Below are positions 3,001 through 62,742 of a stretch of DNA of 64,000 nt, in pieces; the stretch's first letter is position 1; each line of letters opens with the position of its first letter. Where the stretch lies: the NCBI GenBank assembly GCA_964641245.1, contig CAZXML010000001.1, positions 127,959 to 191,958 of the forward strand. Direction: 5' to 3'. The DNA comes from an uncultured Gammaproteobacteria bacterium (GTDB lineage Bacteria > Patescibacteriota > Patescibacteriia > Magasanikbacterales > GWA2-37-8). The position numbers were made by a program, and so were the translations under genes. Below the pieces are notes generated by a model. It was not told the origin of the DNA and did not search any database. It saw only the letters and a program-made list of their open reading frames with translations.

Positions 3001-3285
3001 AAAAGACAGCTTGTATTTTACAAGCTTTTGGTGGAAAGTTCGCGGGATTACAATAAATACACGGTAAATAACGGTTATCTGGAATTTTTGACACCGACCA
3101 CCGACGAGGAAATGATTATTTTACCGTACGCAATTACGACGGATGATGTAGAACGGTTAAAAAAATTAGTAGTAGCCGTTTATGGCAAAATACAAAATCT
3201 AGATTTTCCGGATATAAATAAGTATGAACAAACTCTAGACGGCATTCTGCAATTTGAGGATGATTTAATAAACGGCGCAGTTTAA
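1..3285 (+). CDS. UvrD/PcrA-family superfamily-1 helicase fused to a C-terminal PD-(D/E)XK (AddA/Cas4-like) nuclease domain. The 5' end is truncated by the window; the frame is open from nt 1.
   Basis: Walker A 'AGPGSGKTELL' lies near the N-terminus. 'LVDEFQDTN' (motif II) and 'VVGDDDQAVYKFQGA' (motif III) are present. The C-terminal 'YDFKTGKY...Y..K' block is nuclease-like. The ORF is 1092 aa and the reading frame continues upstream of nt 7. Confidence 0.75.
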   Translation, partial: QKLAVDTIDGPVLVIAGPGSGKTELLSMRVANILKKSDVYPSNILCLTFTDSAAKNMNDRLSALIGIDAHRISVHTFHSFALNIKDRFQENFYDARKMNPADELIQIETLSAILSALPLSDALSKKGPDGVYIYLNSLKDRIGKLKKAGITPDEYQKILQTNSTCYTEIEKIIIPVFQERISKGMRDELPKIITKLGAIKTQGTPIEHSSLLDYKDLIIESLTFAYEKAVEEDGTKALTAWKDEWLKKDPDTKELRLKDTHQLERNTSLAGVYALYQEKIVMAGYVDFDDMIMDLNRVLGDKKGILSQLQEQFQYILVDEFQDTNDAQMRIVNLLADNPVNEGKPNIMVVGDDDQAVYKFQGAEINNILQFKKQYPETKIITLSKNYRSTKAIVDFSQLIISQGDVRLTNQIKEIEKKLEAANPDIAEGAIVAHTFDTALHEYAYIANEIKNKIDNGVNPDDIAVIARNHRHLEIVSNYLEAENIPVRYEKQRNVLDESQIQQLILLSRLVESISNQNIKHQNDLLPRVLSFPFWEIERETIWQLSIDAGKTVRDDKGGRWIDTMLSGDNTHLKNIAGWLISVAGDAQTNTLDFLFDKLIGPAEDTESFTSPFRRFYFSKDKYETDPRTYLQFLSSLNTFKNTVTTYSARTNSARLSGLVECVAVYEKNNLAITDTSPYLSGANAVSLLTAHKAKGSEFDTVFVVNCQNDVWAKSQNRDTIAFPKNLPIDPSGDTLDDFLRIFFVALTRAKRHLYVTSYIMEESGKDSLQIPFLEPSLFSSFNHKIDSAHQKMELLHTIKTLEKIILPNVGPIAVDERVILQPLLDNYIMSVTHLNNFLDVKKGGPHHFFEQNFLRFPQAKSVSMSYGTAMHETVQEIYNQLKSEGKIPSLLKVREIFHEKLKHEPMDGQEFEKYLEQGNKTWKVYMEKAGGRFNKSHRIETDFKTQRVMVENVQITGKIDKIIPNEQDKIFEVYDFKTGKYQRNWEGKDASNKIQLHNYKRQLVFYKLLVESSRDYNKYTVNNGYLEFLTPTTDEEMIILPYAITTDDVERLKKLVVAVYGKIQNLDFPDINKYEQTLDGILQFEDDLINGAV

Positions 3286-3294
3286 TTTAAGCTT

Positions 3295-3594
3295 ATGTCA
3301 GTGCAATCTCTGGGAGAAATATTAAAAAAACAAATGAAACAGCCGGTGCAGGGCTGGAAGCATGTGGAAGCTTCCATGGTGGTGGAAAAAACAAATGAAG
3401 TTTTAAAAGAATTCTTTGGAGCGGAATCAACCAGATTCGCGCAAGCCGTATATTTTAAGGAGCGGACAATTACCATTACTTGTTTAAGTTCGGTTATGGC
3501 CCAGGAAATAAAACTGAATGAGAAAAAAATCATCTTGGCTTTAAACGATAAATTAGGCGGTCAAACAGTGGAAAAAGTACGGTATTTAGCGTAA
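3295..3594 (+). CDS. DUF721/DciA-like small protein
   Basis: The protein is 99 aa. The block 'VYFKERTITITCLSSVMAQEIKLNEKKIILALNDKLGGQTVEKVRY' resembles the DUF721 consensus. Confidence 0.45.
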   Translation: MSVQSLGEILKKQMKQPVQGWKHVEASMVVEKTNEVLKEFFGAESTRFAQAVYFKERTITITCLSSVMAQEIKLNEKKIILALNDKLGGQTVEKVRYLA

Positions 3595-3641
3595 AAATAC
3601 CTATTGCATAACCATGAAAAAAAGGCTAAGATACTAGGACT

Positions 3642-4040
3642 ATGACTTTGCGCCAATATCTTGTTTTAATGTCCATAGGGGCGGTCGTCTGCTGGTTAGC
3701 ATGGTTTTTTGTGTTAGGAAGCGTAGATCCATCCCAGTCCGGAATTTTTGGCTTCATATTTTTTTATACCAGCTTATTTCTGGCGCTGGCCGGAACTTTT
3801 TCCGTTATCGGTTTTCTGGTAAAAAAAATCGTTTTGAAAAATGATCAGATTGTTTTTCACCACGTTAAAAGCACATTCAGACAAAGCATGCTGACGGCCG
3901 GAGTAATTATTTTTGGCCTAATTTTACTCCAAATTAAACTGCTGGCGTGGTGGAACGCAATTTTACTGCTGTTGCTTTTCGCGGCCATAGAGGCTGTCGT
4001 CTTTACAAATCGAAAATTCAGTAACGGGAAGTTTATTTAA
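3642..4040 (+). CDS. hypothetical small integral membrane protein, 3-4 TM helices
   Basis: Hydrophobic segments throughout; I recognise no other motif. Confidence 0.4.
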   Translation: MTLRQYLVLMSIGAVVCWLAWFFVLGSVDPSQSGIFGFIFFYTSLFLALAGTFSVIGFLVKKIVLKNDQIVFHHVKSTFRQSMLTAGVIIFGLILLQIKLLAWWNAILLLLLFAAIEAVVFTNRKFSNGKFI

Positions 4041-4069
4041 GCGTCGCGTTTCAAAGGACGCTACGCGAC

Positions 4070-5137
4070 GTGATTTCGTTAAATCATATGTTTGAGAACC
4101 TGCTGGGAAAACTGAGAAAAGATATTGGTATAGATTTGGGTACGGCAAATACTCTTGTTTATGTTAAAGGACGCGGAATAATTATTAATGAACCAAGCGT
4201 GGTGGCCGTTAACACCAAGACCGAACAAATTCTTGCTGTCGGTAATGAGGCCAAAGAAATGCTCGGCAAAACCCCGCCTCATATTCTTACTACCCGTCCG
4301 CTCATCAGTGGTATTATTTCCGACTTCGAAGTTACGGAAAAAATGCTTAAATATTTTATTGACAAGGTTTATGAAGACAGTATGAATTTTATGACCCGCC
4401 CCAGAGTGGTGGTTGGCGCGCCGCTGGAAATTACCGAGGTAGAACTTAAAGCTATTAACGACGCGGTTATTAACGCTGGCGCCCGGGAAGTAATTGTGGT
4501 TCAGGAACCAATGGCCGCGGCTATCGGCGCCCGCATGCCAATACGCGAACCGGTCGGAAGTTTTATCGTGGAAATTGGCGGCGGGACTTCCGAAATTGCC
4601 GTTATCTCTTTAAGCGGCATAGTTACATGGCGTTCCATTCCGGTTGCCGGAGACGAACTCAACCGTAATATTATACAATATGCCCGGGACAATTTTAATC
4701 TGTTGTTGGGAGAAAAACAGGCGGAAGAAATCAAAATTAAAATTGGATCGGCCATAGAGCTACATGAACCAATGCACTTCCCAATGCGCGGCCGCGATCT
4801 TGTTTCCGGACTGCCTAAAGAAATTATGATTAATGATTCACAGGTTAGAGAAGCTATTACAAAATCACTACGGACCATCATAGAAAATATAAAAGGCACT
4901 CTGGAAATTACACCGCCAGAATTGGTCGCCGATATTCACGAAAGGGGAATAGTGCTTTCCGGCGGTGGCGCTCTTTTGCGCGGTTTCGACCAACTAATTG
5001 CCCGCGCCATCGAAATTCCGGTTCGCATTGCCGACGATCCGTTAACTTCCGTGGTTAGAGGAACAGGCCTGCTTCTGGATGACGATGAACTTCTTAAAGA
5101 AATCGCTGTTAAAACTCAAAATCAAGGATCTTCCTAG
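4070..5137 (+). CDS. mreB: rod shape-determining actin-like protein MreB
   Basis: 'IGIDLGTANTLVYVKGRGIIINEPSVVA' and 'VVVGAP', plus the full actin/Hsp70 fold motifs. Confidence 0.9.
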   Translation: MISLNHMFENLLGKLRKDIGIDLGTANTLVYVKGRGIIINEPSVVAVNTKTEQILAVGNEAKEMLGKTPPHILTTRPLISGIISDFEVTEKMLKYFIDKVYEDSMNFMTRPRVVVGAPLEITEVELKAINDAVINAGAREVIVVQEPMAAAIGARMPIREPVGSFIVEIGGGTSEIAVISLSGIVTWRSIPVAGDELNRNIIQYARDNFNLLLGEKQAEEIKIKIGSAIELHEPMHFPMRGRDLVSGLPKEIMINDSQVREAITKSLRTIIENIKGTLEITPPELVADIHERGIVLSGGGALLRGFDQLIARAIEIPVRIADDPLTSVVRGTGLLLDDDELLKEIAVKTQNQGSS

Positions 5138-5146
5138 TAAATTACT

Positions 5147-5947
5147 ATGCTTCGTTTTAAGGCAAAAAATTACTTTTTTTTAGGATTTATATTCGTGTTG
5201 CTTATTTTTTTCCATTATTTTGGGTGGCTTGGCGCGCTGGAACACGGTGTACGTTCTTTAATAATTCCTATTTCCACCAAAATAACACAATGGCGCTTGT
5301 CTTCACAGGATTCTTACAATTATTTTGCCAATCAAAAAAATCTGGTTGGTCAATACAATAAATGTCTCAGTGAAGATCAGGACTCGGATGTAGCCGACGC
5401 AAGAATAAAGGATCTGGAAAAAGAAAACAATGAAATCAGAAAACAACTGAATTTTTTTCATCGCCGAAATTTTACGGCTGTAGGCGCTGACATCGTTGGC
5501 CAAAGCTCCAACAGCGCGGAAAAAATGGTAATAATTGATGCGGGTAGTAGCGCGGGAATAAAACTTGGTCAACCGGTTGTCGCCAGAGACGGAATTCTGG
5601 TAGGCACAATTGCCAAGGTTGAAAGAGATATCGCCATGGTGCGTTTAATAAATGACAACCAGAGCAAAATAGCGGCCACAATTTTAAATAAAGACGGCAG
5701 TTTGGGTGTAGTGGAGGGTGGTTATGGTTTAAGTGTACGAATGAATTTCATACCAAGAAATGAAACAGTGCTTATCGGTGATAAAATTATTACCTCCGGT
5801 TTGGAACAGGCAATTCCGCGCGGTTTGCTGATTGGTGAAGTTGCGGTTGCCGAAAATGAGGCCTACCAGCCGTTTCAACAGGCGGTCCTCACCACCGCCA
5901 TCGACCTCTACAAACTCACTATTGTCAGCGTTCTGATTTCCAACTAA
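5147..5947 (+). CDS. mreC: rod shape-determining protein MreC
   Basis: N-terminal TM helix, a coiled coil ('IKDLEKENNEIRKQL'), then a beta-rich domain ('GQPVVARDGILVGTIAKV'). Lies immediately downstream of mreB. Confidence 0.7.
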   Translation: MLRFKAKNYFFLGFIFVLLIFFHYFGWLGALEHGVRSLIIPISTKITQWRLSSQDSYNYFANQKNLVGQYNKCLSEDQDSDVADARIKDLEKENNEIRKQLNFFHRRNFTAVGADIVGQSSNSAEKMVIIDAGSSAGIKLGQPVVARDGILVGTIAKVERDIAMVRLINDNQSKIAATILNKDGSLGVVEGGYGLSVRMNFIPRNETVLIGDKIITSGLEQAIPRGLLIGEVAVAENEAYQPFQQAVLTTAIDLYKLTIVSVLISN

Positions 5948-5958
5948 CCCTTCCGCCT

Positions 5959-6504
5959 ATGTTGCAACTATTCTGGAGAACGCTGCGCTTTATTTTCATT
6001 ATCTTCGCAATCTTAATAACGCATGTTTTTGTAATTAATTTTTTACCTTCCCCTTTTAATCATATAAATATTACTTTTTCCTTATTGCTGCTGTTTTTAA
6101 CAGCCAACTCAGATAGAAAAATAATCTGGCTCGGTTTAATTGTTTCTTATTTATCGGAGCTGTTCAGCGGCGCGCCATTTGGAATTGGCATGGCGTCCAC
6201 CATTATCAGTCTTCTGGTAATTAACTGGTTTCAGCTTAATATTCTAACAAACCGGTCCGGATATATGGTGTTTTTATCGTTGTTTTTTGGTGTCACTTTG
6301 TATAGAGCTATATTTATCCTGTTTCTGACAGTTAATAATTATTTTTCCCACCAGGAACCGCTTTCATACCGGGAAATCATAACGATTGCCGGCTGGGAAA
6401 TTCTCCTGTCATCCGTAGTCGTATTTATACTGTATTTCTTATACTCATTATTTTTAAAAAGTCTTAATCCGGCGCGTAAAAAGAGCGGAATGATATATGT
6501 CTAA
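5959..6504 (+). CDS. mreD: rod shape-determining protein MreD-like polytopic membrane protein
   Basis: 181 aa and very hydrophobic. Its position between mreC and the PBP2 gene supports the call. Confidence 0.45.
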   Translation: MLQLFWRTLRFIFIIFAILITHVFVINFLPSPFNHINITFSLLLLFLTANSDRKIIWLGLIVSYLSELFSGAPFGIGMASTIISLLVINWFQLNILTNRSGYMVFLSLFFGVTLYRAIFILFLTVNNYFSHQEPLSYREIITIAGWEILLSSVVVFILYFLYSLFLKSLNPARKKSGMIYV

Positions 6505-29468: not shown

Positions 29469-29605
29469 GGTATTTTTCATACACGCTCGGAAATTAAAAT
29501 TAATTTTAATTTCTCTCGCTTTGTGTAAAAAATAAAAGGCTCCGCATGTTTTCACACGCCAGAGCCCGATGACTTAGAAAATCGACGACACGAATGTCGC
29601 TTGTC

Positions 29606-29971
29606 CTACGAATCGATTTTCATTTCTTCCCCGCCAACATAAGTTTTCACTCCCTTTATTTTATCAATCAGCTCATCCAGCGTTGGTCTTGGCGCGCCTT
29701 GCTGCCCCGCAAATCTTTCCTCCACATGCGGATCATCTTTCGGCCAAGCATACATGACAATCGCTTCACCACCAGCCACAAAACAAGGACCGTCCGTCAC
29801 CCAATCTTTGGGGAGGTGCTTCTCAAAGAGCCAGCTGATGCGCCTCACTTCTTCTTCCCAGCCTTTGTTTGGCCATTTTGTCGTTACCCCAAAACCACTC
29901 CAAGATTCCCACACACAAAAGCCGCGCAGATGCCAGAAAGTGAGCCAAAAAATCGACTTGTTCTCCTTCAT
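29606..29971 (-). CDS. hypothetical Trp-rich small protein (121 aa), GC-enriched
   Basis: Strong RBS 'aaaggagatagg' lies 4 nt before the ATG at 29971. Local GC is about 47%, against roughly 38% in the flanks. Confidence 0.4.
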   Translation of the reverse strand: MKENKSIFWLTFWHLRGFCVWESWSGFGVTTKWPNKGWEEEVRRISWLFEKHLPKDWVTDGPCFVAGGEAIVMYAWPKDDPHVEERFAGQQGAPRPTLDELIDKIKGVKTYVGGEEMKIDS

Positions 29972-30014
29972 TTTCCTATCTCCTTTACCGCTACCATAGC
30001 GAGATTCTTACCCT

Positions 30015-30043
30015 TTGTCAAACTCAAAACTTTATGATACTAT
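30015..30043 (+). promoter_or_regulatory. candidate promoter TTGTCA-17-TACTAT for the 30056 gene
   Basis: Hexamers and spacing were read directly from the sequence. Confidence 0.35.
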
Positions 30044-35638: not shown

Positions 35639-35708
35639 TTGTCATCCTGAACTTGTTTCAGGATCTATCACGACTAACCAAGATGCTGAAACAAGTTCAG
35701 CATGACAA
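35639..35708. repeat. inverted pair of GTCATCC-family hairpin repeats between def and fmt
   Basis: Left unit 'ttgtcatcctgaacttgtttcaggatct' at 35639-35666. Right unit 'tgaaacaagttcagcatgacaa' at 35687-35708. The left unit is identical over 28 nt to the reverse complement of 58202-58229. Confidence 0.7.
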
Positions 35709-54263: not shown

Positions 54264-54593
54264 TTATATTAAATGACTCAAAATATCCTCTTTTAATGTT
54301 TTGTCCAGATTGGCTTTTTTTTCTTCCGTTGTCGGAGGTGTATTACCGGCGGCCTCGGAAATTTTTTCCATTACCGTTCGTTTCTCTGCGCCCAAAATAA
54401 GATTATTGTTCACCAATAAGTTGGGCCCAAAATCACAACAGCCGAGACACCCGCAAAAATCTAAATCGTATTCGGCGTTTTTGTTGCCGACTTTGAGACC
54501 GGTCGATTGTTCTATTTCCTGCATAATACTTGCCGAACCTTTTTTAGCGCAGGAAGTATTAGAGCAAACACGTACTATTATTTGTTCATTCAT
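54264..54593 (-). CDS. thioredoxin-like [2Fe-2S] ferredoxin (NuoE-like fold)
   Basis: 'CSNTSC' and 'CGCLGCC' cysteine pairs. Confidence 0.5.
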   Translation of the reverse strand: MNEQIIVRVCSNTSCAKKGSASIMQEIEQSTGLKVGNKNAEYDLDFCGCLGCCDFGPNLLVNNNLILGAEKRTVMEKISEAAGNTPPTTEEKKANLDKTLKEDILSHLI

Positions 54594-54598
54594 ATATA

Positions 54599-55795
54599 TT
54601 ATCTGGAAATTGAGCGTTGTTGAGCTACGATTAAAGGTAAATACTTCATTAAATAATCAATATCTTGTTTGGTATTGCAATGACCTAGAGTAAAACGTAA
54701 ACTACCGCGCGCTTGGTCCGTTGGCAGTCCCAATGCTTTTAAAACATGGGACGGCTCTAATGATTGAGCGGCGCAGGCCGAACCGGTGGAACACATAATT
54801 CCGTATTCATCCAAATACAACAACAAGGCCTCCCCTTCCGTTCCGGAAAAACTCACATTTAAATTATTGGCCAGTCTTTGTGAACCGATTTCCGGACCGT
54901 TTAATTTAACTTGAGGAACTTCTTTTTTAATTTTATCCCAAAGATATTTCACCAGACCAGCCAGTCGCTTTGATTCTTTTTCTTTGTTTAATTGAACCAA
55001 TTCCAGCGCTTTGGCCAGACCAACTATACCCGGAATATTTTCCGTGCCAGCGCGAAGTTTTCGTTCCTGATCGCCACCCAAAATTAACGGCTTGAGTGTC
55101 ACACCCCGTCGCGCGTAAAGCGCGCCCACGCCTTTTGGCCCGTAAATTTTACCGCCGTTTATGGTCATTAAATCCACATGAAGTTTTTCTACGTCTAAAT
55201 CCAGATAACCGGCCGCTTGGCACGCATCGGTATGAAAAAAAGGATAGACTGTTTTGTGTTCTTTGCGATATTGTAAAATCGCGCGCCCAATTTCCGCTAT
55301 TGGTTCAATGACGCCAATTTCGTTATTGGCATACATTATGGAAATTAAAACCGTGTCCGGACGGATAGCCTTAATTACATCTTCAACATTTACCACACCT
55401 TCACCATTCACCCGCACGTAAGTTATTTCCCAGCCCTGTTTTTTTAAATCTTCCAGAGGGTTAAGTACGGCGCTGTGTTCTATGGCAATGGAAATAATAT
55501 GCTTGCCGCGCTGTTTATGAGCGTTGGCAATTCCGAATAGCGCCATATTATCCGACTCGGTCCCGCTACCGGTAAAAATAATATTTTCAGGCAAGGCGCC
55601 AATTTGTTTGGCCACAATACGCCGACTTTCATTTAGCGCGTTATTGGCCTTTACACCTTCCTTATATAAAGAAGAAGGATTACCGTAAATTTTTGTAAAA
55701 TACGGTTGCATTGCCGAAAGAATCCGCGGATCCATATAAGTGGTAGCCGCGTGGTCTAAATAAACACTCTTAATTTTTTTTGGTTTTGGGAGCAC
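54599..55795 (-). CDS. cysteine desulfurase (class V aminotransferase, NifS/IscS-like)
   Basis: 'IYLDHAATT', PLP-Lys region 'INGGKIYGPKG' and active-site 'SGSACA'. Confidence 0.85.
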   Translation of the reverse strand: MLPKPKKIKSVYLDHAATTYMDPRILSAMQPYFTKIYGNPSSLYKEGVKANNALNESRRIVAKQIGALPENIIFTGSGTESDNMALFGIANAHKQRGKHIISIAIEHSAVLNPLEDLKKQGWEITYVRVNGEGVVNVEDVIKAIRPDTVLISIMYANNEIGVIEPIAEIGRAILQYRKEHKTVYPFFHTDACQAAGYLDLDVEKLHVDLMTINGGKIYGPKGVGALYARRGVTLKPLILGGDQERKLRAGTENIPGIVGLAKALELVQLNKEKESKRLAGLVKYLWDKIKKEVPQVKLNGPEIGSQRLANNLNVSFSGTEGEALLLYLDEYGIMCSTGSACAAQSLEPSHVLKALGLPTDQARGSLRFTLGHCNTKQDIDYLMKYLPLIVAQQRSISR

Positions 55796-55797
55796 AC

Positions 55798-56187
55798 TTA
55801 AATTTTTACTTTCTGCATCATCTTAATCATTTCTTTGTTCAGTTTTGTGGTAATTTTTTGGACATTACAATTTTTATTTGCATTATTGCAGGCGCATTCA
55901 GTCTTACTCAAGCATGGAGTAATAACTAATTCACCTTCCATGATCTCAAAAACTTTATAAAGATTAAGTTTCTTTGCCGGCTTGATTAGACGGTAGCCGC
56001 CGTTTACCCCCTGTTCGGCTTCTATAATACCGGCCAGATTTAATTTACGGGCTATTTTTTGCAAAAACCAAAACGAAATTCCGGATTTTTTGGAAAAATC
56101 CCGAAGACTGACAAAGTTTGTATTCTTTGAATTTAGCGATTGCAGTAATTGGACCGCATAATCCGTTTCTCTTTTTAATGCGAACAT
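55798..56187 (-). CDS. Rrf2-family (IscR-like) transcriptional regulator
   Basis: wHTH N-terminus 'ALKRETDYAVQLLQSL'. C-terminal Cys cluster 'CLSKTECACNNANKNC'. Confidence 0.7.
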   Translation of the reverse strand: MFALKRETDYAVQLLQSLNSKNTNFVSLRDFSKKSGISFWFLQKIARKLNLAGIIEAEQGVNGGYRLIKPAKKLNLYKVFEIMEGELVITPCLSKTECACNNANKNCNVQKITTKLNKEMIKMMQKVKI

Positions 56188-56189
56188 AG

Positions 56190-56260
56190 ATGTGAATTAG
56201 CAATTAACAACGAACAATGAGCAATCGATTGTTTCTTGTTAATTGTTAGTTGTTAATTAA
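56190..56260. promoter_or_regulatory. long imperfect palindrome in the rrf2-nifS upstream region (candidate operator)
   Basis: 'caattaacaacgaacaat' ... 'attgtttcttgttaattg' match at 16 of 18 positions as an inverted repeat, flanked by TTAATTG reiterations. Confidence 0.4.
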
Positions 56261-56261
56261 A

Positions 56262-56852
56262 CTAGAACGGAAGGGTCAAGTTTATATTCTTTTTTGCGGT
56301 AGAATTTTTGTTATCAGATTCGGGGTCAAAGTTGACGGCGAACGGAACAATTTCTCCGACTAAATTCTGATAAAATAACTGTTTGTTGTTCTTGCCGAAT
56401 TCGTAAATTTCTTTGGTTACTTTTACATCCTGTTCGCAATATTTTTTTATCTCGTCTATTTTTCCTTCCTTCCACCAGCGGATGGCCTGCAAACCGTCCG
56501 CGCTTTTTTCCATATCCAAAGTGGCCATGGCGATGGAATTTAATTTTAGGCGGATGCCAACACTTTCTTTTACCTTCTTCATGATATCCAAATGGCTGAT
56601 GACAGATAAATCTCCCAAATAATAATTATGTAAAATCGGTAGGTCAAAATGTTCGCTGTTGTAACCGATTATGCGGTCGGCTTTTTCCAGAATTGGCCAC
56701 AATTTATTTAATTCATTTTCTTCAAAACTGGTATATGTGTCGGTGACGTACTGATAAATGGAAACGCACGAAATTTTGAATTTCTTAAAATCATTATCCA
56801 CATCCGCAAATGTGTTTTGTGTTTCAATATCAAAAACTATTTCATTGAGCAT
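56262..56852 (-). CDS. DEDDy-type 3'-5' exonuclease domain protein
   Basis: 'VFDIETQ' is Exo I, 'GYNSEHFDLPIL' is Exo II and 'YCEQDVKVT' is Exo III with Tyr. Confidence 0.5.
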   Translation of the reverse strand: MLNEIVFDIETQNTFADVDNDFKKFKISCVSIYQYVTDTYTSFEENELNKLWPILEKADRIIGYNSEHFDLPILHNYYLGDLSVISHLDIMKKVKESVGIRLKLNSIAMATLDMEKSADGLQAIRWWKEGKIDEIKKYCEQDVKVTKEIYEFGKNNKQLFYQNLVGEIVPFAVNFDPESDNKNSTAKKNINLTLPF

Positions 56853-56891
56853 AAAAATAGATTACACGGATTTTTAACGGATTTCGCGGAT

Positions 56892-56971
56892 TTGTCATCC
56901 TGAATGAAATGAAGGATCTCTGTCTCAATCGCGAAATGGACAGAGATTCTTCGTTTTGCTCAGAATGACAA
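56892..56971. repeat. inverted pair of GTCATCC-family repeats with a central 8-bp-stem hairpin, between thiI and the exonuclease gene
   Basis: Left unit 'ttgtcatcctgaatgaaatgaaggatct'. Centre TCTCTGTC...GACAGAGA. Right unit 'attcttcgttttgctcagaatgacaa'. Confidence 0.6.
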
Positions 56972-58150
56972 CTAACACGGACTTACAGAACCACCGCTTA
57001 CATTATAAGAAATAACTTCGGTTTTATCGATTATGGATTCGTCAATCAGCCCTTCGTATTTTAAAACATCTTTTAGTCTGGCCTTTGTTTCCGGGTGCTT
57101 AGCCACAAATAAACTGCAACAATCTTCGTAAGGGCGGGCGGAAATATCCAGGGTGCCGATTTTACGGGCAAGATCTATTATATCTTTTTTATTTGTTCCT
57201 ATCAACGGTGACAGTTTTAACAATTCCGTGGCATTGGCAATAACGGCCATGTTCTCCAGAGTTTGCGAAGCCACCTGGCCTAAGCTATCGCCGTTTACTA
57301 ACGCCAGACAATGATTTTGGCGGGCAACTTTTTCGGCGATTTTATTAAATATCCGGCGCGTCACTATCATGCGGTATGGCGCCGGAACCTTCATAATAAT
57401 TTGTTTTTGAACTTCAGCAAACGAAACCATAAATAATTTTATCTCGGGCTGGTAGTTGGATAAAACTTTCGCCAAATCAAATATTTTTTCGCTTACCGCT
57501 TCGGTAACTTGAGTTTGATTTTGAAAATGAATCAGGCTTGCTTCCCCGCCCCGGCACATTATTTTGTATGCCGCCACCGGGCTGTCTATGCCGCCGGATA
57601 ACAAAGCCAGCACTTTGCCGGATGAACCTGCAGGCAATCCGCCGGCGGCGTTTTGCGTATTACCATAAATACAAGTTTCGGTTTTGCCGACGGAAATATG
57701 AATATTCAAATCCGGATTATTTAAAGAAACCTGCCAGTTATATTTTACGCGCGCGTATTCCCCGATTTCTTTGGCTATTTCGCCGGATGAAAGTGGGAAG
57801 TTTTTAAATGAACGTTCGGCGGAGATGCGGAAGGACAGCGCCTCGGCAACTCCCTCTCGCTCCCTCTTGGTAAGAGGGAGATTGTGACCGAACAATTCGT
57901 CTACTCCTTTTTTTATATCCTCAATCGTGGATTTTGTTTTTATAGCTTCGGAGTAATTGGCAAAACCTGGAATTAGGGATAATTGCGACATTTGCTCCGC
58001 CTGAATATTTTCCAGCCATAAGCCCCCCTCTACTCTGACAACCCGAACACCCGATAACAGATTTTCGAAATTATTCTTAAGATGACGATAAAAAAGGGGC
58101 TGATTAGAGCCCTTCAAGAATATCTCGTCTATGTGGATAATTACATTCAT
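56972..58150 (-). CDS. thiI: tRNA 4-thiouridine synthase ThiI (THUMP + PP-loop)
   Basis: PP-loop 'ALLSGGIDSPVAAY' with an N-terminal THUMP-like region. Confidence 0.8.
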   Translation of the reverse strand: MNVIIHIDEIFLKGSNQPLFYRHLKNNFENLLSGVRVVRVEGGLWLENIQAEQMSQLSLIPGFANYSEAIKTKSTIEDIKKGVDELFGHNLPLTKREREGVAEALSFRISAERSFKNFPLSSGEIAKEIGEYARVKYNWQVSLNNPDLNIHISVGKTETCIYGNTQNAAGGLPAGSSGKVLALLSGGIDSPVAAYKIMCRGGEASLIHFQNQTQVTEAVSEKIFDLAKVLSNYQPEIKLFMVSFAEVQKQIIMKVPAPYRMIVTRRIFNKIAEKVARQNHCLALVNGDSLGQVASQTLENMAVIANATELLKLSPLIGTNKKDIIDLARKIGTLDISARPYEDCCSLFVAKHPETKARLKDVLKYEGLIDESIIDKTEVISYNVSGGSVSPC

Positions 58151-58201
58151 AGCGTCTCAAATGTCAAGCTGAATTTATTTCAGCATCTATAATGTCCGCG
58201 C

Positions 58202-58229
58202 AGATCCTGAAACAAGTTCAGGATGACAA
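58202..58229. repeat. solo GTCATCC-family repeat unit, reverse orientation
   Basis: 'agatcctgaaacaagttcaggatgacaa' is the reverse complement of 35639-35666, a 28/28 match. Confidence 0.7.
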
Positions 58230-58295
58230 TCATACCTATTTAGTCTTATTTTATTTGTATTCTACAGTATTTTTGAAATTTGTAAAGCGCGGGTA

Positions 58296-58324
58296 TTGAC
58301 TTTTAAACCAAATCCGAGTAGCAT
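58296..58324 (+). promoter_or_regulatory. candidate promoter TTGACT-17-TAGCAT, followed by a strong SD (aaaggagg) for the 58348 gene
   Basis: Hexamers at 58296-58301 and 58319-58324. The SD lies at 58335-58342. Confidence 0.4.
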
Positions 58325-58347
58325 AAATTTAACAAAGGAGGTGGCGC

Positions 58348-58572
58348 ATGTGGCACAAAAGGGGATCTGCCTTAGAGAAGCGAATCAAGGCGCTAATGCC
58401 AAAAAAGGGATCATTCGCGTACGTTCTACTCAAAATCGGACAGGCTGCGGGCGTCCTCGTTCTTATCAAGATCGATGAGATTTGGTGTAATGTCATTCCG
58501 CCAGATCGCCGCCCAAACGAATCGGATAATCAAAACCAAGGAAGGAGGGTAAAATGTCAAAAAAGCCTTTGA
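58348..58572 (+). CDS. hypothetical small protein (74 aa), GC-enriched
   Basis: Strong SD lies 5 nt upstream of the ATG. Overlaps the next gene by 19 nt. Confidence 0.4.
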   Translation: MWHKRGSALEKRIKALMPKKGSFAYVLLKIGQAAGVLVLIKIDEIWCNVIPPDRRPNESDNQNQGRRVKCQKSL

Positions 58573-58898
58573 CTCAAATCTTGCCCCCGCCTTCAATCTG
58601 TGTTGAATGCCGCGGGCGATTGCCTTTTGCGTACTACATTTGCAAAAGCTGCGGGAAAGCGCTCTGCGCCAAGTGCCGAGAAATCCATGTAAAAAATAAA
58701 CACGGCACGCAATACCCAACTTTAACCGCAATGGGCTGTATCATATGCGGAGGACCGCTGGATGGGGGGACTTGTTCATACCAATCCCCTCCCTGCATGG
58801 CTCCGCTATGTCAGAACTGGGAGTGTCGTGAAAAGCACGAAGATAGACACTACGGTTCGCGAAGTGATGAAGAAAAAAATAAAAATCCGTCAAAATGA
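58554..58898 (+). CDS. hypothetical Cys-rich small protein (114 aa, about 14 Cys in CxxC pairs), zinc-ribbon-like
   Basis: 'CVECRG', 'CKSCGKALCAKC', 'CIICGG' and further Cys residues. Strong SD 'ggaaggaggg'. Confidence 0.45.
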   Translation: MSKKPLTQILPPPSICVECRGRLPFAYYICKSCGKALCAKCREIHVKNKHGTQYPTLTAMGCIICGGPLDGGTCSYQSPPCMAPLCQNWECREKHEDRHYGSRSDEEKNKNPSK

Positions 58899-58941
58899 CT
58901 TCGTCCGGGGACATCTAAAAAAACATAGCTCTGTCCCCTTT

Positions 58942-60072
58942 TTATTTTGCTAAAAACTGTTTTATCTTCTCCGCATTTCGCAGCTGTCCGCAAGCGGCGG
59001 CGATGTCTTGGCCTTGAGAGTAGCGGATGGTAGAAACAAAACCGGCTTTCATTAATTCCTCGTGCCAGTGTTTAATTACGGTTTTGTCCGAACCAATAAA
59101 ACCCGGAGAAAATTCCGGTGTAGAAATACTGTTATAAGGAATCAAATTTATTTTAATTTTTCCTAATTTTCCTGCCAGCGTCATCAGCGCTTTTAAATCT
59201 TTGGGACCGTCGTTTACTCCGCCTAACATAATATATTCCAAACCGATAAAATGAGAACGGCTTGGGTGCATTTGGTGATATTTTTTTGCCCAGCCCACTA
59301 AATAATCCAAAAATCCGGGTTGGTGTGAAGGCATGATAGCGGAGCGGGTTTGTTCTATAGCGCTGTGCAAAGACAGGGCAAAGCGTACAGGCGGAAAATC
59401 TTTGTCTTCCACCAACCTGTCCATGGCCGTGGGAATTCCGCAGGTGGACATGGTAATTTTACTCGGCCCGATGTTTGTATATTTTAAAATAATATTTAAA
59501 GCGGTTTTGCAATTTTCATAGTTCAGCAATGGTTCTCCCTGGCCCATCACCACCATATTATCTATTTCCCCGCCATTTTGTTCCGCTAATGTCTTCTGTG
59601 CCGACTTTCCAGCGGGAAAGTCGAGCATCCTCGATTCCACGGTGAGGCGGAATCGGGACCAAAAACGATACTGGTCCACAATTTCTTCAGCGGTTAAATT
59701 TCTGGAAAATCCGGCTTTACCGGTGGCGCAAAAAGAACATTTCATGCCACAGCCAACTTGAGATGAAATACAAATTGTGTAACGGTCCGGTCCCCCATCG
59801 GTTTTGAGTGACTTTCGACCCATTAAAACCGCCTCAATAAGTTGGCCGTCTTCCAATTTTAATAAAGCCTTTTGAGTGTCATCGGTTTTACTTTTGTGGA
59901 GAACGTGTAATTTTACCGACAGCCAAGGCTTGTCTTTTAACTTCTCCCGTAAATTTGCCGGCAAGGTTGTAATATCAGCGTAGCTATTTAACTTTGCGTC
60001 AAACCAGGCCCGGAACACTTGGTCCTGCCTGAATTTCTTTTCGGTTGCTAAAATTTGGAATAAATCTATCAT
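58942..60072 (-). CDS. rlmN: radical SAM 23S rRNA (adenine2503-C2)-methyltransferase RlmN/Cfr family
   Basis: 'GCGMKCSFCATG' is the CxxxCxxC motif. 'MGQGEPLLN' is also present. Confidence 0.85.
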   Translation of the reverse strand: MIDLFQILATEKKFRQDQVFRAWFDAKLNSYADITTLPANLREKLKDKPWLSVKLHVLHKSKTDDTQKALLKLEDGQLIEAVLMGRKSLKTDGGPDRYTICISSQVGCGMKCSFCATGKAGFSRNLTAEEIVDQYRFWSRFRLTVESRMLDFPAGKSAQKTLAEQNGGEIDNMVVMGQGEPLLNYENCKTALNIILKYTNIGPSKITMSTCGIPTAMDRLVEDKDFPPVRFALSLHSAIEQTRSAIMPSHQPGFLDYLVGWAKKYHQMHPSRSHFIGLEYIMLGGVNDGPKDLKALMTLAGKLGKIKINLIPYNSISTPEFSPGFIGSDKTVIKHWHEELMKAGFVSTIRYSQGQDIAAACGQLRNAEKIKQFLAK

Positions 60073-62359: not shown

Positions 62360-62389
62360 TTGACGAAAGCGACTGTTTAGTAGTACTAT
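62360..62389 (+). promoter_or_regulatory. candidate promoter TTGACG-18-TACTAT, with SD 'gaggagg', for the 62434 gene
   Basis: Read directly from the sequence. Confidence 0.4.
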
Positions 62390-62433
62390 TATTTAGCGTT
62401 GTGTGTTGTTCCCAAACACAGAGGAGGATCGTA

Positions 62434-62742
62434 ATGAAAAACATGACGAGAGAGATCGAGCAGGCTGTGCAACTGGCCTTTCGAGGGTCACGTAAGGTTA
62501 GGGTTACCTTTAGGCAAGATGTGCGCGATCATTTCCGGTTGTTGGAGCTGGAGCGTGACGGATTCATTTCGCTGTCATCCTCCGATAGTGAAGCGCTTAG
62601 CACAGGTGATATCTCTGGCGACTGGAATAACAAGCGTAATCGTACCGCTGTGGTTACCCTAACCAAAAAACTGAGAGCGAGTAAGTACTTGTTCGTGATC
62701 GCGATGGAACACGTCCTCGAAAATATCAAGGTGGTTAAGTAG
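62434..62742 (+). CDS. hypothetical small protein (~102 aa), GC-enriched
   Basis: ATG at 62434 has the SD 'cagaggagg' 7 nt upstream. The ORF track's upstream start at 62401 is less likely. Confidence 0.4.
   Translation: MKNMTREIEQAVQLAFRGSRKVRVTFRQDVRDHFRLLELERDGFISLSSSDSEALSTGDISGDWNNKRNRTAVVTLTKKLRASKYLFVIAMEHVLENIKVVK

Follow-up and report, generated by a model that had tools for sequence, protein, structure and literature searches.

Between thiI (56972-58150) and rlmN (58942-60072), both on the minus strand of a 64,000-nt stretch of contig CAZXML010000001.1 (hereafter the window, whose positions serve as coordinates unless another locus is named), lie two small open reading frames (ORFs) of the plus strand, orf74 (58348-58572) and orf114 (58554-58898), the second of which encodes the Cys-rich protein that is our main subject. 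A preliminary description of this DNA had reported genes of 74 and 114 amino acids (aa) overlapping by 19 nt at this place, and the coordinates agree. Promoter scanning located a sigma-70-type promoter at 58296-58324 of the plus strand (-35 box TTGACT, 17-nt spacer, and -10 box TAGCAT), followed on the same strand by a Shine-Dalgarno (SD) sequence for orf74 (AAAGGAGGT, 58334-58342, 5 nt before the ATG) and by another for orf114 (GGAAGGAGGG, 58540-58549) within the 3' end of orf74. An intrinsic terminator follows at 58907-58945 of the plus strand, with the stem GGGGACA/UGUCCCC, a U-tract, and a fold energy of -13.2 kcal/mol (z -3.0); it was missed by a simple scan because its internal region is longer than the 3- to 8-nt loop allowed. 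Since promoter, SD sequences, and hairpin with U-tract surround both ORFs, the promoter, SD, orf74, SD, orf114, and terminator form one self-contained transcription unit.

The signals of this unit recur in related loci (L001 and other L-numbered loci), which were reached through a ThiI similarity search. The promoter pattern TTGAC(T/C)-N17-TAnnnT precedes the homologous genes in L001, L004, L006, L009, L011, L084, L086-L088, L093, and L094, and an equivalent terminator hairpin with its U-tract is found in L001 and L088, with altered stem bases (GAGGACA/UGUCCUC in L001). On the opposite strand, the thiI promoter (58259-58286, minus strand, TTTACA-16-TAGAAT, 10/12 matches in the promoter scan) contains in its region the block TATTCTACAnnTTTTnnGAAAnTGTAAA, which is kept in all related loci. 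The two promoters thus stand back-to-back, with -35 boxes 9 bp apart in the window and 9 to 12 bp apart across loci, and the conserved intergenic blocks between thiI and the Cys-rich gene coincide with them. A conserved operator in this intergenic region was therefore rejected, as the conserved blocks are the two promoters themselves, and TTGACTTTT was discarded as a regulon motif because its two matches in the window equal the chance expectation. No known RNA was detected in an Rfam scan of the window.

The product of orf114 (58554-58898, plus strand) is a 12.7-kDa protein of 114 aa with an isoelectric point (pI) of 8.9, predicted to be a tandem cross-brace zinc-finger protein. It carries 12 Cys and 4 His, a count that corrects an earlier estimate of about 14 Cys, and its Cys content of 10.5% compares with 0.82% in 50 window genes (binomial P 2e-10). 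These residues are arranged in two modules. Module 1 (residues 16-50; 58599-58703, plus strand) has the pattern C-x2-C-x10-C-x2-C-x4-C-x2-C-x3-H-x4-H, with C16, C19, C30, C33, C38, C41, H45, and H50 as ligands, and constitutes the basic half of the protein (pI 9.5). Module 2 (residues 62-99; 58737-58850, plus strand) reads C-x2-C-x8-C-x6-C-x4-C-x4-C-x3-H-x3-H, with ligands C62, C65, C74, C81, C86, C91, H95, and H99, and is the most conserved part of the protein (PAPLCxNWxCREKHE). The two modules are homologous, each ligand of one aligning with a ligand of the other (hhalign probability 97.4%, E 1.5e-11), and the protein is therefore one 8-ligand finger duplicated in tandem.

The conservation of orf114 confirms that it is a real gene. 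All 12 Cys are invariant in a 12-sequence alignment (A3), whereas 11 are listed as invariant in a 13-sequence alignment (A4), where C16 is shifted by the way the sequences are aligned; of the His ligands, H45, H50, and H95 show no or almost no variation in the family alignments. Strict conservation extends to residues that are not ligands, namely LTxM, PAPLC, and NWxCRExHE. The homologues in L001 and L088 are 79% and 72% identical, respectively, with substitutions concentrated at codon position 3, and the ratio of nonsynonymous to synonymous substitution rates (dN/dS) of 0.15-0.18 denotes purifying selection. The start codon was set by the conserved N terminus (MSEK/MSKK), with which the conserved SD agrees. 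In the AlphaFold2 (AF2) model, with a mean predicted local distance difference test score (pLDDT) of 74, each module consists of short strands and then a helix.

The first gene of the unit, orf74 (58348-58572, plus strand), is also real and encodes a small, basic (pI 10.2), putatively helical protein of 74 aa. It belongs to a small-ORF family that we designate type A, whose common motif is PK(K/Q)GS...DE(I/V)WCx(I/V)IPP(D/N)R and whose other members, in L004 (57 aa) and L094/L095 (58 aa), are 43-55% identical to it. Most of the substitutions are at the third codon position (dN/dS about 0.09, dS being saturated), and the start was set by the conserved N terminus M-x-x-KR, again in agreement with the conserved SD. 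No match was obtained in Pfam, NCBIfam, PHROG, or PADLOC, and the single-sequence AF2 model predicts two helices (pLDDT 65). A membrane location was considered, the hydropathy of the window copy being borderline (about 1.66, computed by hand), and rejected, since the homologous helices of L004 and L001 contain charged residues. The 19-nt overlap with orf114 is specific to the window genome: the final ~17 residues of orf74 correspond, in the alignment with L094, to sequence that there forms the leader of the Cys-rich gene and is untranslated, and the overlap therefore stems from a local loss of the stop codon.

Relatives of orf114 are few. A single-sequence search of 5.8 billion clustered proteins recovered the query itself and one relative only, an exhaustive HMMER search of 1.84 billion representatives gave 14 matches at E <= 1e-3 (of which about 12 are true), and a word-indexed profile search gave 13. 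One metagenome scan added four loci of the family, a scan of the genome collection with a two-sequence profile gave no match, and no viral relatives appeared in the viral searches. The relatives retrieved through ThiI are annotated as Magasanikbacteria or Parcubacteria-group metagenome-assembled genomes, which places the host of the window among the Patescibacteria, as a Magasanikbacteria-like bacterium. The family is restricted to loci with a ThiI no less than 65% identical to that of the window; in 30 more distant Magasanikbacteria loci, no Cys-rich gene lies upstream of thiI.

Within this narrow range the position of the gene is constant. In all 14 loci with a visible flank (the window, L001, L006, L008-L010, L084-L089, L093, and L094), the Cys-rich gene and thiI are divergently oriented, among relatives whose ThiI is 65-81% identical to that of the window. 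The Cys-rich gene stands immediately upstream of thiI in 13 of them; in L008 two small ORFs come between, and its promoter lies within ~0.8 kb of that of the thiI operon. Its far flank alternates between rlmN and the gene for 6,7-dimethyl-8-ribityllumazine (DMRL) synthase. The preliminary description had proposed a horizontal acquisition; a recent one is not supported, because this position is conserved and the gene is under purifying selection. The Cys-rich gene is a conserved lineage-specific gene and not a recently imported cassette.

The remainder of the thiI-rlmN gap behaves as a variable islet, where every gene is preceded by a strong SD and a copy of one and the same promoter. Type-A ORFs occur in the window, L004, and L094, and ORFs of another family, type B, in L001, L011, and L094; in L094, type B, type A, and the Cys-rich gene follow one another. 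The gap holds only type A in L004, only type B in L011, only the Cys-rich gene in L006 and L084-L089, and nothing in L005. A possible homology between type A and type B was rejected, the hhalign probability of their 14-residue local match near PKKGSF being 11%, and we treat them as separate families. The orf74-type gene and the Cys-rich gene are found together in the window and in L094/L095, the Cys-rich gene is joined by type B in L001, and it occurs without an orf74-type partner in L006, L009, L010, and L084-L089. Since the orf74 family occurs with or without orf114, this independence argues against a toxin/antitoxin pair, as had been suggested, and no toxin/antitoxin homology was found; searches for defense, toxin, or antitoxin families gave no match for orf74 and only zinc-finger matches for orf114. 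We propose that orf74 would be an accessory small basic helical protein from one of several SD-led families that come and go in this gap.

Comparison with described zinc fingers suggests to which class the modules of orf114 belong. The B-box1 consensus is C-x2-C-x7-10-C-x2-C-x4-5-C-x2-C/H-x3-6-H-x2-8-H. Module 1, with its CCCCCCHH order and spacing of 2, 10, 2, 4, 2, 3, and 4, fits it; module 2 departs from it at the second and third pairs (C-x6-C and C-x4-C), which are wider, and the second pair of module 2 is spaced by x2 in most homologues, unlike the x6 of the window protein. The protein scores below the threshold of every curated family. Sub-threshold Pfam matches of module 1 include zf-B_box_Trim66 (PF25287, E 1.3e-4) and zf-B_box (PF00643, E 0.018), and the bit scores against the gathering thresholds are 22.1 against 27 for PF25287, 15.7 against 24.1 for PF00643, and 13.6 against 27 for PF22586 (ANCHR-like_BBOX). 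Among 13 family members, 9 match ANCHR-like_BBOX and 7 match zf-B_box (best E 6e-5), none being shown to reach the gathering score. When the family profile was compared with the PDB, PML B-box1 was matched at E 3.7e-4, together with TRIM28 B-box1, TRIM2, and ZNHIT3 (E 0.0099).

The predicted structure points the same way. With the AF2 model as Foldseek query, PML B1 is matched with a TMt of 0.68, and the tandem B-boxes of CONSTANS match the model over 77-89 columns, which suggests a similar double arrangement. In contrast to the B-box proteins compared by name (B-box1 of PML, TRIM28, and MID1), the orf114 family comprises stand-alone chains of 89-187 aa with two or three modules, confined to one Patescibacteria subclade, and orf114 has no RING, coiled-coil, membrane, or peptidase partner domain. 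The top Foldseek match of the model is the ZZ finger of p62/SQSTM1 (probability 0.99-1.0, TMt 0.59-0.68), aligned over ~47 residues with a root mean square deviation of 2.2-2.7 A. This likeness to ZZ is structural only, as the ZZ sequence model PF00569 matched neither orf114 nor the 13 members in Pfam scans (E <= 10 and E <= 1). In a Foldseek search of a viral library, the model matched only RING/ZZ fingers of eukaryotic viruses. HIT fingers (ZNHIT3 and ZNHIT2; zf-HIT, PF04438), eukaryotic assembly-factor modules of interleaved binuclear type, share with orf114 the motif Y-x-C-x2-C-x4-C-x2-C-x3-H; the match is weaker than that of the B-box, and the Pfam model picks up only 1 of the 13 members (E 0.2). 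Small stand-alone Cys-rich zinc binders, whose role is mostly obscure, exist elsewhere in prokaryotes, as in the archaeal CPxCG micro-proteins and the bacterial metallothionein SmtA. No sequence similarity between these and orf114 was found, and orf114 differs from them in its two defined 8-ligand modules, predicted to be of cross-brace type, and its conserved non-ligand surfaces.

The matches, individually weak, all run in the same direction, and orf114 is thus best described as a predicted RING-like binuclear treble clef, closest to the B-box and ZZ fingers. The suggestion of a metal-binding protein of treble-clef type made in the preliminary description is in this way borne out, as far as sequence profiles and a structural model can tell, in the form of two putative 8-ligand cross-brace modules with B-box-, ZZ-, and HIT-like matches. 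Prokaryotic binuclear treble clefs were reportedly described by Burroughs et al. in 2011, a study to which PMC4506424 and PMC4999995 refer. The CCCCCCHH ligand order is that of ZZ and B-box1 fingers, and the pattern of the ZZ fingers of p62/SQSTM1 and CBP/p300 is identical to that of orf114 (PMC4506424). The same source describes B-boxes in prokaryotes and eukaryotes, ZZ as restricted to eukaryotes, and B-box, ZZ, and HIT fingers as mainly protein-binding modules (PMC4506424). The orf114 protein is a previously undescribed stand-alone tandem variant of a known fold class in a narrow clade of the candidate phyla radiation; it is worth a family description, and its kind is in itself no surprise. 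Binuclear RING-like fingers of the B-box, ZZ, and HIT types are found mainly in eukaryotes, as modules of protein interaction, and the conserved tandem version of the ultra-small Patescibacteria adds a data point on their prokaryotic roots. It is otherwise of local interest, as a tiny orphan family of which orf114 offers a concrete, purifiable target.

Taken as a whole, the explanation that we favor, and consider moderately probable, is that of a single unit whose Cys-rich product is a tandem zinc-stabilized scaffold, vertically inherited and co-expressed with the thiI operon. Each module would hold two Zn ions through its CCCCCCHH ligands, giving four per chain, and the protein would act as a small zinc-stabilized interaction scaffold. 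Its partner would most likely be a protein, possibly a nucleic acid, the latter being considered because the N-terminal half is basic. The gene has been inherited vertically within one subclade and would be expressed from a strong promoter and SD; as they share a bidirectional promoter region, it and the thiI operon would be co-expressed. From the conserved divergent linkage we infer that orf114 is probably co-expressed with, and perhaps functionally tied to, this tRNA-thiolation/sulfur-transfer operon.

It is important to consider the observations that weigh against this explanation. The B-box, ZZ, and HIT matches are all weak, and Cys/His-rich profiles attract one another; Foldseek E values are only 0.02-0.1, and the confidence of the AF2 model is only moderate. 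Zinc rather than iron is assumed as the metal. Iron can also be held by Cys4 sites, rubredoxin being an example, and in relatives the operon next to the Cys-rich gene encodes ferredoxins. The linkage to thiI could be explained simply by descent within a narrow clade whose bidirectional promoter is compact. Three close relatives, L004, L005, and L011, have an intact thiI and no Cys-rich gene, and in L084 thiI is cut to 157 aa with the Cys-rich gene intact. Finally, the atypical codon usage described below leaves room for an old foreign origin.

Among the alternatives, a zinc-finger transcription factor acting on the divergent promoter region (58230-58330), and regulating the thiI operon, itself, or both, is unlikely, although several features speak for it. 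Conserved divergent gene pairs are often regulator-target pairs, the divergent layout is conserved here with the -35 boxes only 9-12 bp apart, and the N-terminal module is basic (pI 9.5). However, domain searches detected no DNA-binding domain in orf114, the conserved intergenic blocks are fully explained by the two promoters, and the operon already possesses an Rrf2 regulator in the window and L086. Moreover, fingers of the B-box, ZZ, and HIT types bind mainly proteins (PMC4506424), and thiI persists without the Cys-rich gene in L004, L005, and L011.

We give a slim chance to a metal buffer or redox protein, that is, a metallothionein-like zinc store or a rubredoxin-like carrier of iron or electrons for the neighboring sulfur and Fe-S genes. 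Its 10.5% Cys in paired CxxC knuckles, the strongest translation signals of the window, high expression from a strong promoter and SD, and the presence next door, in relatives, of a cysteine desulfurase, a 2Fe-2S thioredoxin-like ferredoxin, and a Fer4 ferredoxin would be in keeping with such a role. On the contrary, the strict conservation of many non-ligand residues (LTxM, PAPLC, and NWxCRExHE) indicates that a particular fold and surface are maintained, and both the spacing of the ligands and the second sites, which contain His, agree with those of structural binuclear zinc fingers. Besides, the protein is not carried along with the ferredoxins where the operon is disrupted, an example being L084.

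The translation signals of both genes deserve separate attention. Duplex energies against the anti-SD sequence were computed for orf74 (-16.3 kcal/mol) and orf114 (-12.8 kcal/mol) and for 49 other window genes, one gene at the window edge having no upstream sequence. Both values exceed in strength those of all 49 (median -0.85, best -9.1 kcal/mol), which agrees with the near-perfect SDs reported earlier: these are the two strongest sites of the window, at good spacing. The statement that many genes have a weak SD or none also holds, as an SD-like motif occurs in 4% of the 50 listed window genes. A scan for GGAGG followed by a start codon and an ORF yielded a single additional 5'-terminal case in the window (62434-62742). 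Both sites are preserved in relatives: CAAAGGAGG, of the orf74 site, is kept in L001, L004, and L011, and AAGGAAGG(G)AGGG before orf114 is kept at the nucleotide level in L001, L006, L084, L086, L088, and L093. An anti-SD motif is reportedly missing in part of, or in many, Parcubacteria, in a source that does not state the status of Magasanikbacteria (PMC9297842). The 16S rRNA gene was not found in the window (Rfam) nor in 0.98 Mb of related loci, and the 6.4 kb beyond the left end of the window hold only ATP synthase and UvrD-like genes. Since the SDs of this unit are conserved across species and anti-SD loss has been reported in Parcubacteria, the locus offers a direct test of whether, and when, such ribosomes use SD pairing.

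Three small lineage-specific genes with textbook SDs thus stand among core genes that, in the window, are essentially SD-free. The third (62434-62742, plus strand) encodes a 102-aa orphan, orf102, with AGAGGAGG 6 nt before its ATG and an apparent TTGACG-type promoter of its own at about 62360-62390. Its GC content of 48.5%, GC content at codon position 3 (GC3) of 59%, and codon score (z -4.2) put it in the same compositional class as the pair formed by orf74 and orf114. At the syntenic position, after the transketolase gene, L085 and L006 have a different SD-led ORF of 113 aa. In 551 kb of related loci, the GGAGG-led ORFs are mostly small, unannotated genes.

That a genome otherwise free of SDs contains small SD-led genes of distinct composition is a more intriguing observation than the fold class. 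A speculative extension, which we regard as improbable in its full form, would have the core genes of this Magasanikbacteria subclade translated without SD pairing and the small lineage-specific genes as a separate SD-dependent class, accreted or born in the thiI-rlmN gap, each behind a copy of one promoter. The fixed member of that class would be the tandem zinc finger, in the role of a zinc-dependent adaptor to ThiI and the cysteine desulfurase in tRNA thiolation. The class would comprise the tandem zinc finger, orf74, the type-B ORFs, a 251-253 aa membrane/coiled-coil protein, and orf102. If true, such an arrangement would make the tandem B-box/ZZ-like protein a bacterial stand-alone counterpart of the eukaryotic B-box/ZZ scaffolds.

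The composition of the two genes bears on their origin. Their GC content, given as about 50% in the preliminary description, was measured as 46.7% for orf74 and 48.1-48.2% for orf114, above a window mean of 40.4% (standard deviation 4.2 in windows of the same size), which places the pair at the 96.7th percentile of window GC. In orf114 the excess lies at codon position 2 (z +4.0), with GC3 only at the 89th-94th percentile, and therefore reflects its Cys/Pro/Gly/Ala/Arg content; the GC expected from its amino acid composition and host codon usage is 46.5%, against 48.2% observed. Thus, the GC excess is due mostly to amino acid composition. Codon-preference scores are -0.14 for orf74 (z -5.4) and -0.03 for orf114 (z -2.8), compared with 0.082 +/- 0.041 in core genes, so the pair is compositionally unlike the core genes, as had been noted, and uses SDs that are otherwise unused in the window. 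Of the observations named beforehand as decisive against a foreign cassette, conserved synteny and a GC content largely explained were both found, whereas the codon usage, off the genome average, speaks for one. An old foreign or de novo origin is kept in consideration because codon usage and SD use differ from those of the core genome.

That the two genes are a foreign cassette acquired recently, possibly as a toxin/antitoxin pair, is very improbable and already largely refuted: the GC above the window mean, the atypical codon usage, the SDs foreign to the host style, and the differing content of the thiI-rlmN gap among relatives speak for it, but the gene keeps its position in 14 loci and is under purifying selection, the GC excess is mostly explained, the two genes occur separately and overlap only through a local stop-codon loss, no mobile-element genes flank the pair (the only nearby repeat being a 67-nt palindrome on the thiI side), and orf114 gave no viral, PHROG, PADLOC, or plasmid-like signal.

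Several further features of these loci were recorded. Longer members of the orf114 family (P0008, P0009, P0011, and P0013) have three modules and/or an acidic C-terminal tail motif, RIKAI(I/V)EEI(D/N)RDP, and many members carry H-x-D-x-RSDEEK directly after module 2. The 251-253 aa protein mentioned above is encoded at 435-1196 of L001 and 1885-2640 of L093. It has hydrophobic, putatively transmembrane segments at its N terminus as well as a long region resembling a coiled coil; the two proteins are 35% identical, SD-led, and located behind a copy of the same promoter, and only some relatives have the gene.

The thiI operon of the window (54264-58150, minus strand) comprises thiI, which has no rhodanese domain, a conserved 196-aa RNase_H_2/DnaQ-like exonuclease, an Rrf2 regulator, a cysteine desulfurase (Aminotran_5), and a 109-aa ORF, whose slot is occupied in relatives by a 2Fe-2S thioredoxin-like ferredoxin. 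The operon of relatives includes 2Fe-2S and 4Fe-4S (Fer4) ferredoxins, with Rrf2 present only sometimes (window and L086). In L084 (Parcubacteria GW2011_GWA2_43_9b), the truncated thiI (3402-3875) keeps its N-terminal ferredoxin-like part, the rest of the operon is replaced, and rlmN is intact. In L011, a 774-aa P-type ATPase (3260-5584) is inserted between the small ORF and rlmN, and the thiI leader (5830-6000) has a different insertion, with GATTACACGGATT-type direct repeats. Elsewhere in the window, a 147-aa ORF (29594-30037, plus strand) has the most atypical codon usage of the 49 reference genes (score -0.088) and is overlapped by an antisense ORF of 121 aa.

The "solo repeat unit" described earlier at 58202-58229 is one arm of the 67-nt palindrome (58162-58228), which lies outside the orf74-orf114 unit, in the thiI leader between the thiI promoter and start codon. 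It resembles an insertion of the miniature inverted-repeat transposable element or repetitive extragenic palindrome type and folds at -27.1 kcal/mol (z -5.3). It was rejected as an operator or a part of the unit, being a dispersed element that is missing at this site in all relatives. Further copies are located at 35641-35705 of the window and 1112-1173 of L009. The element measures ~65-75 nt, with two hairpin units of the GTCATCCTGAA-N5-TTCAGGATC type, and its stems vary compensatorily among copies (ATCC/GGAT, ATGC/GCAT, and ATCCC/GGGAT).

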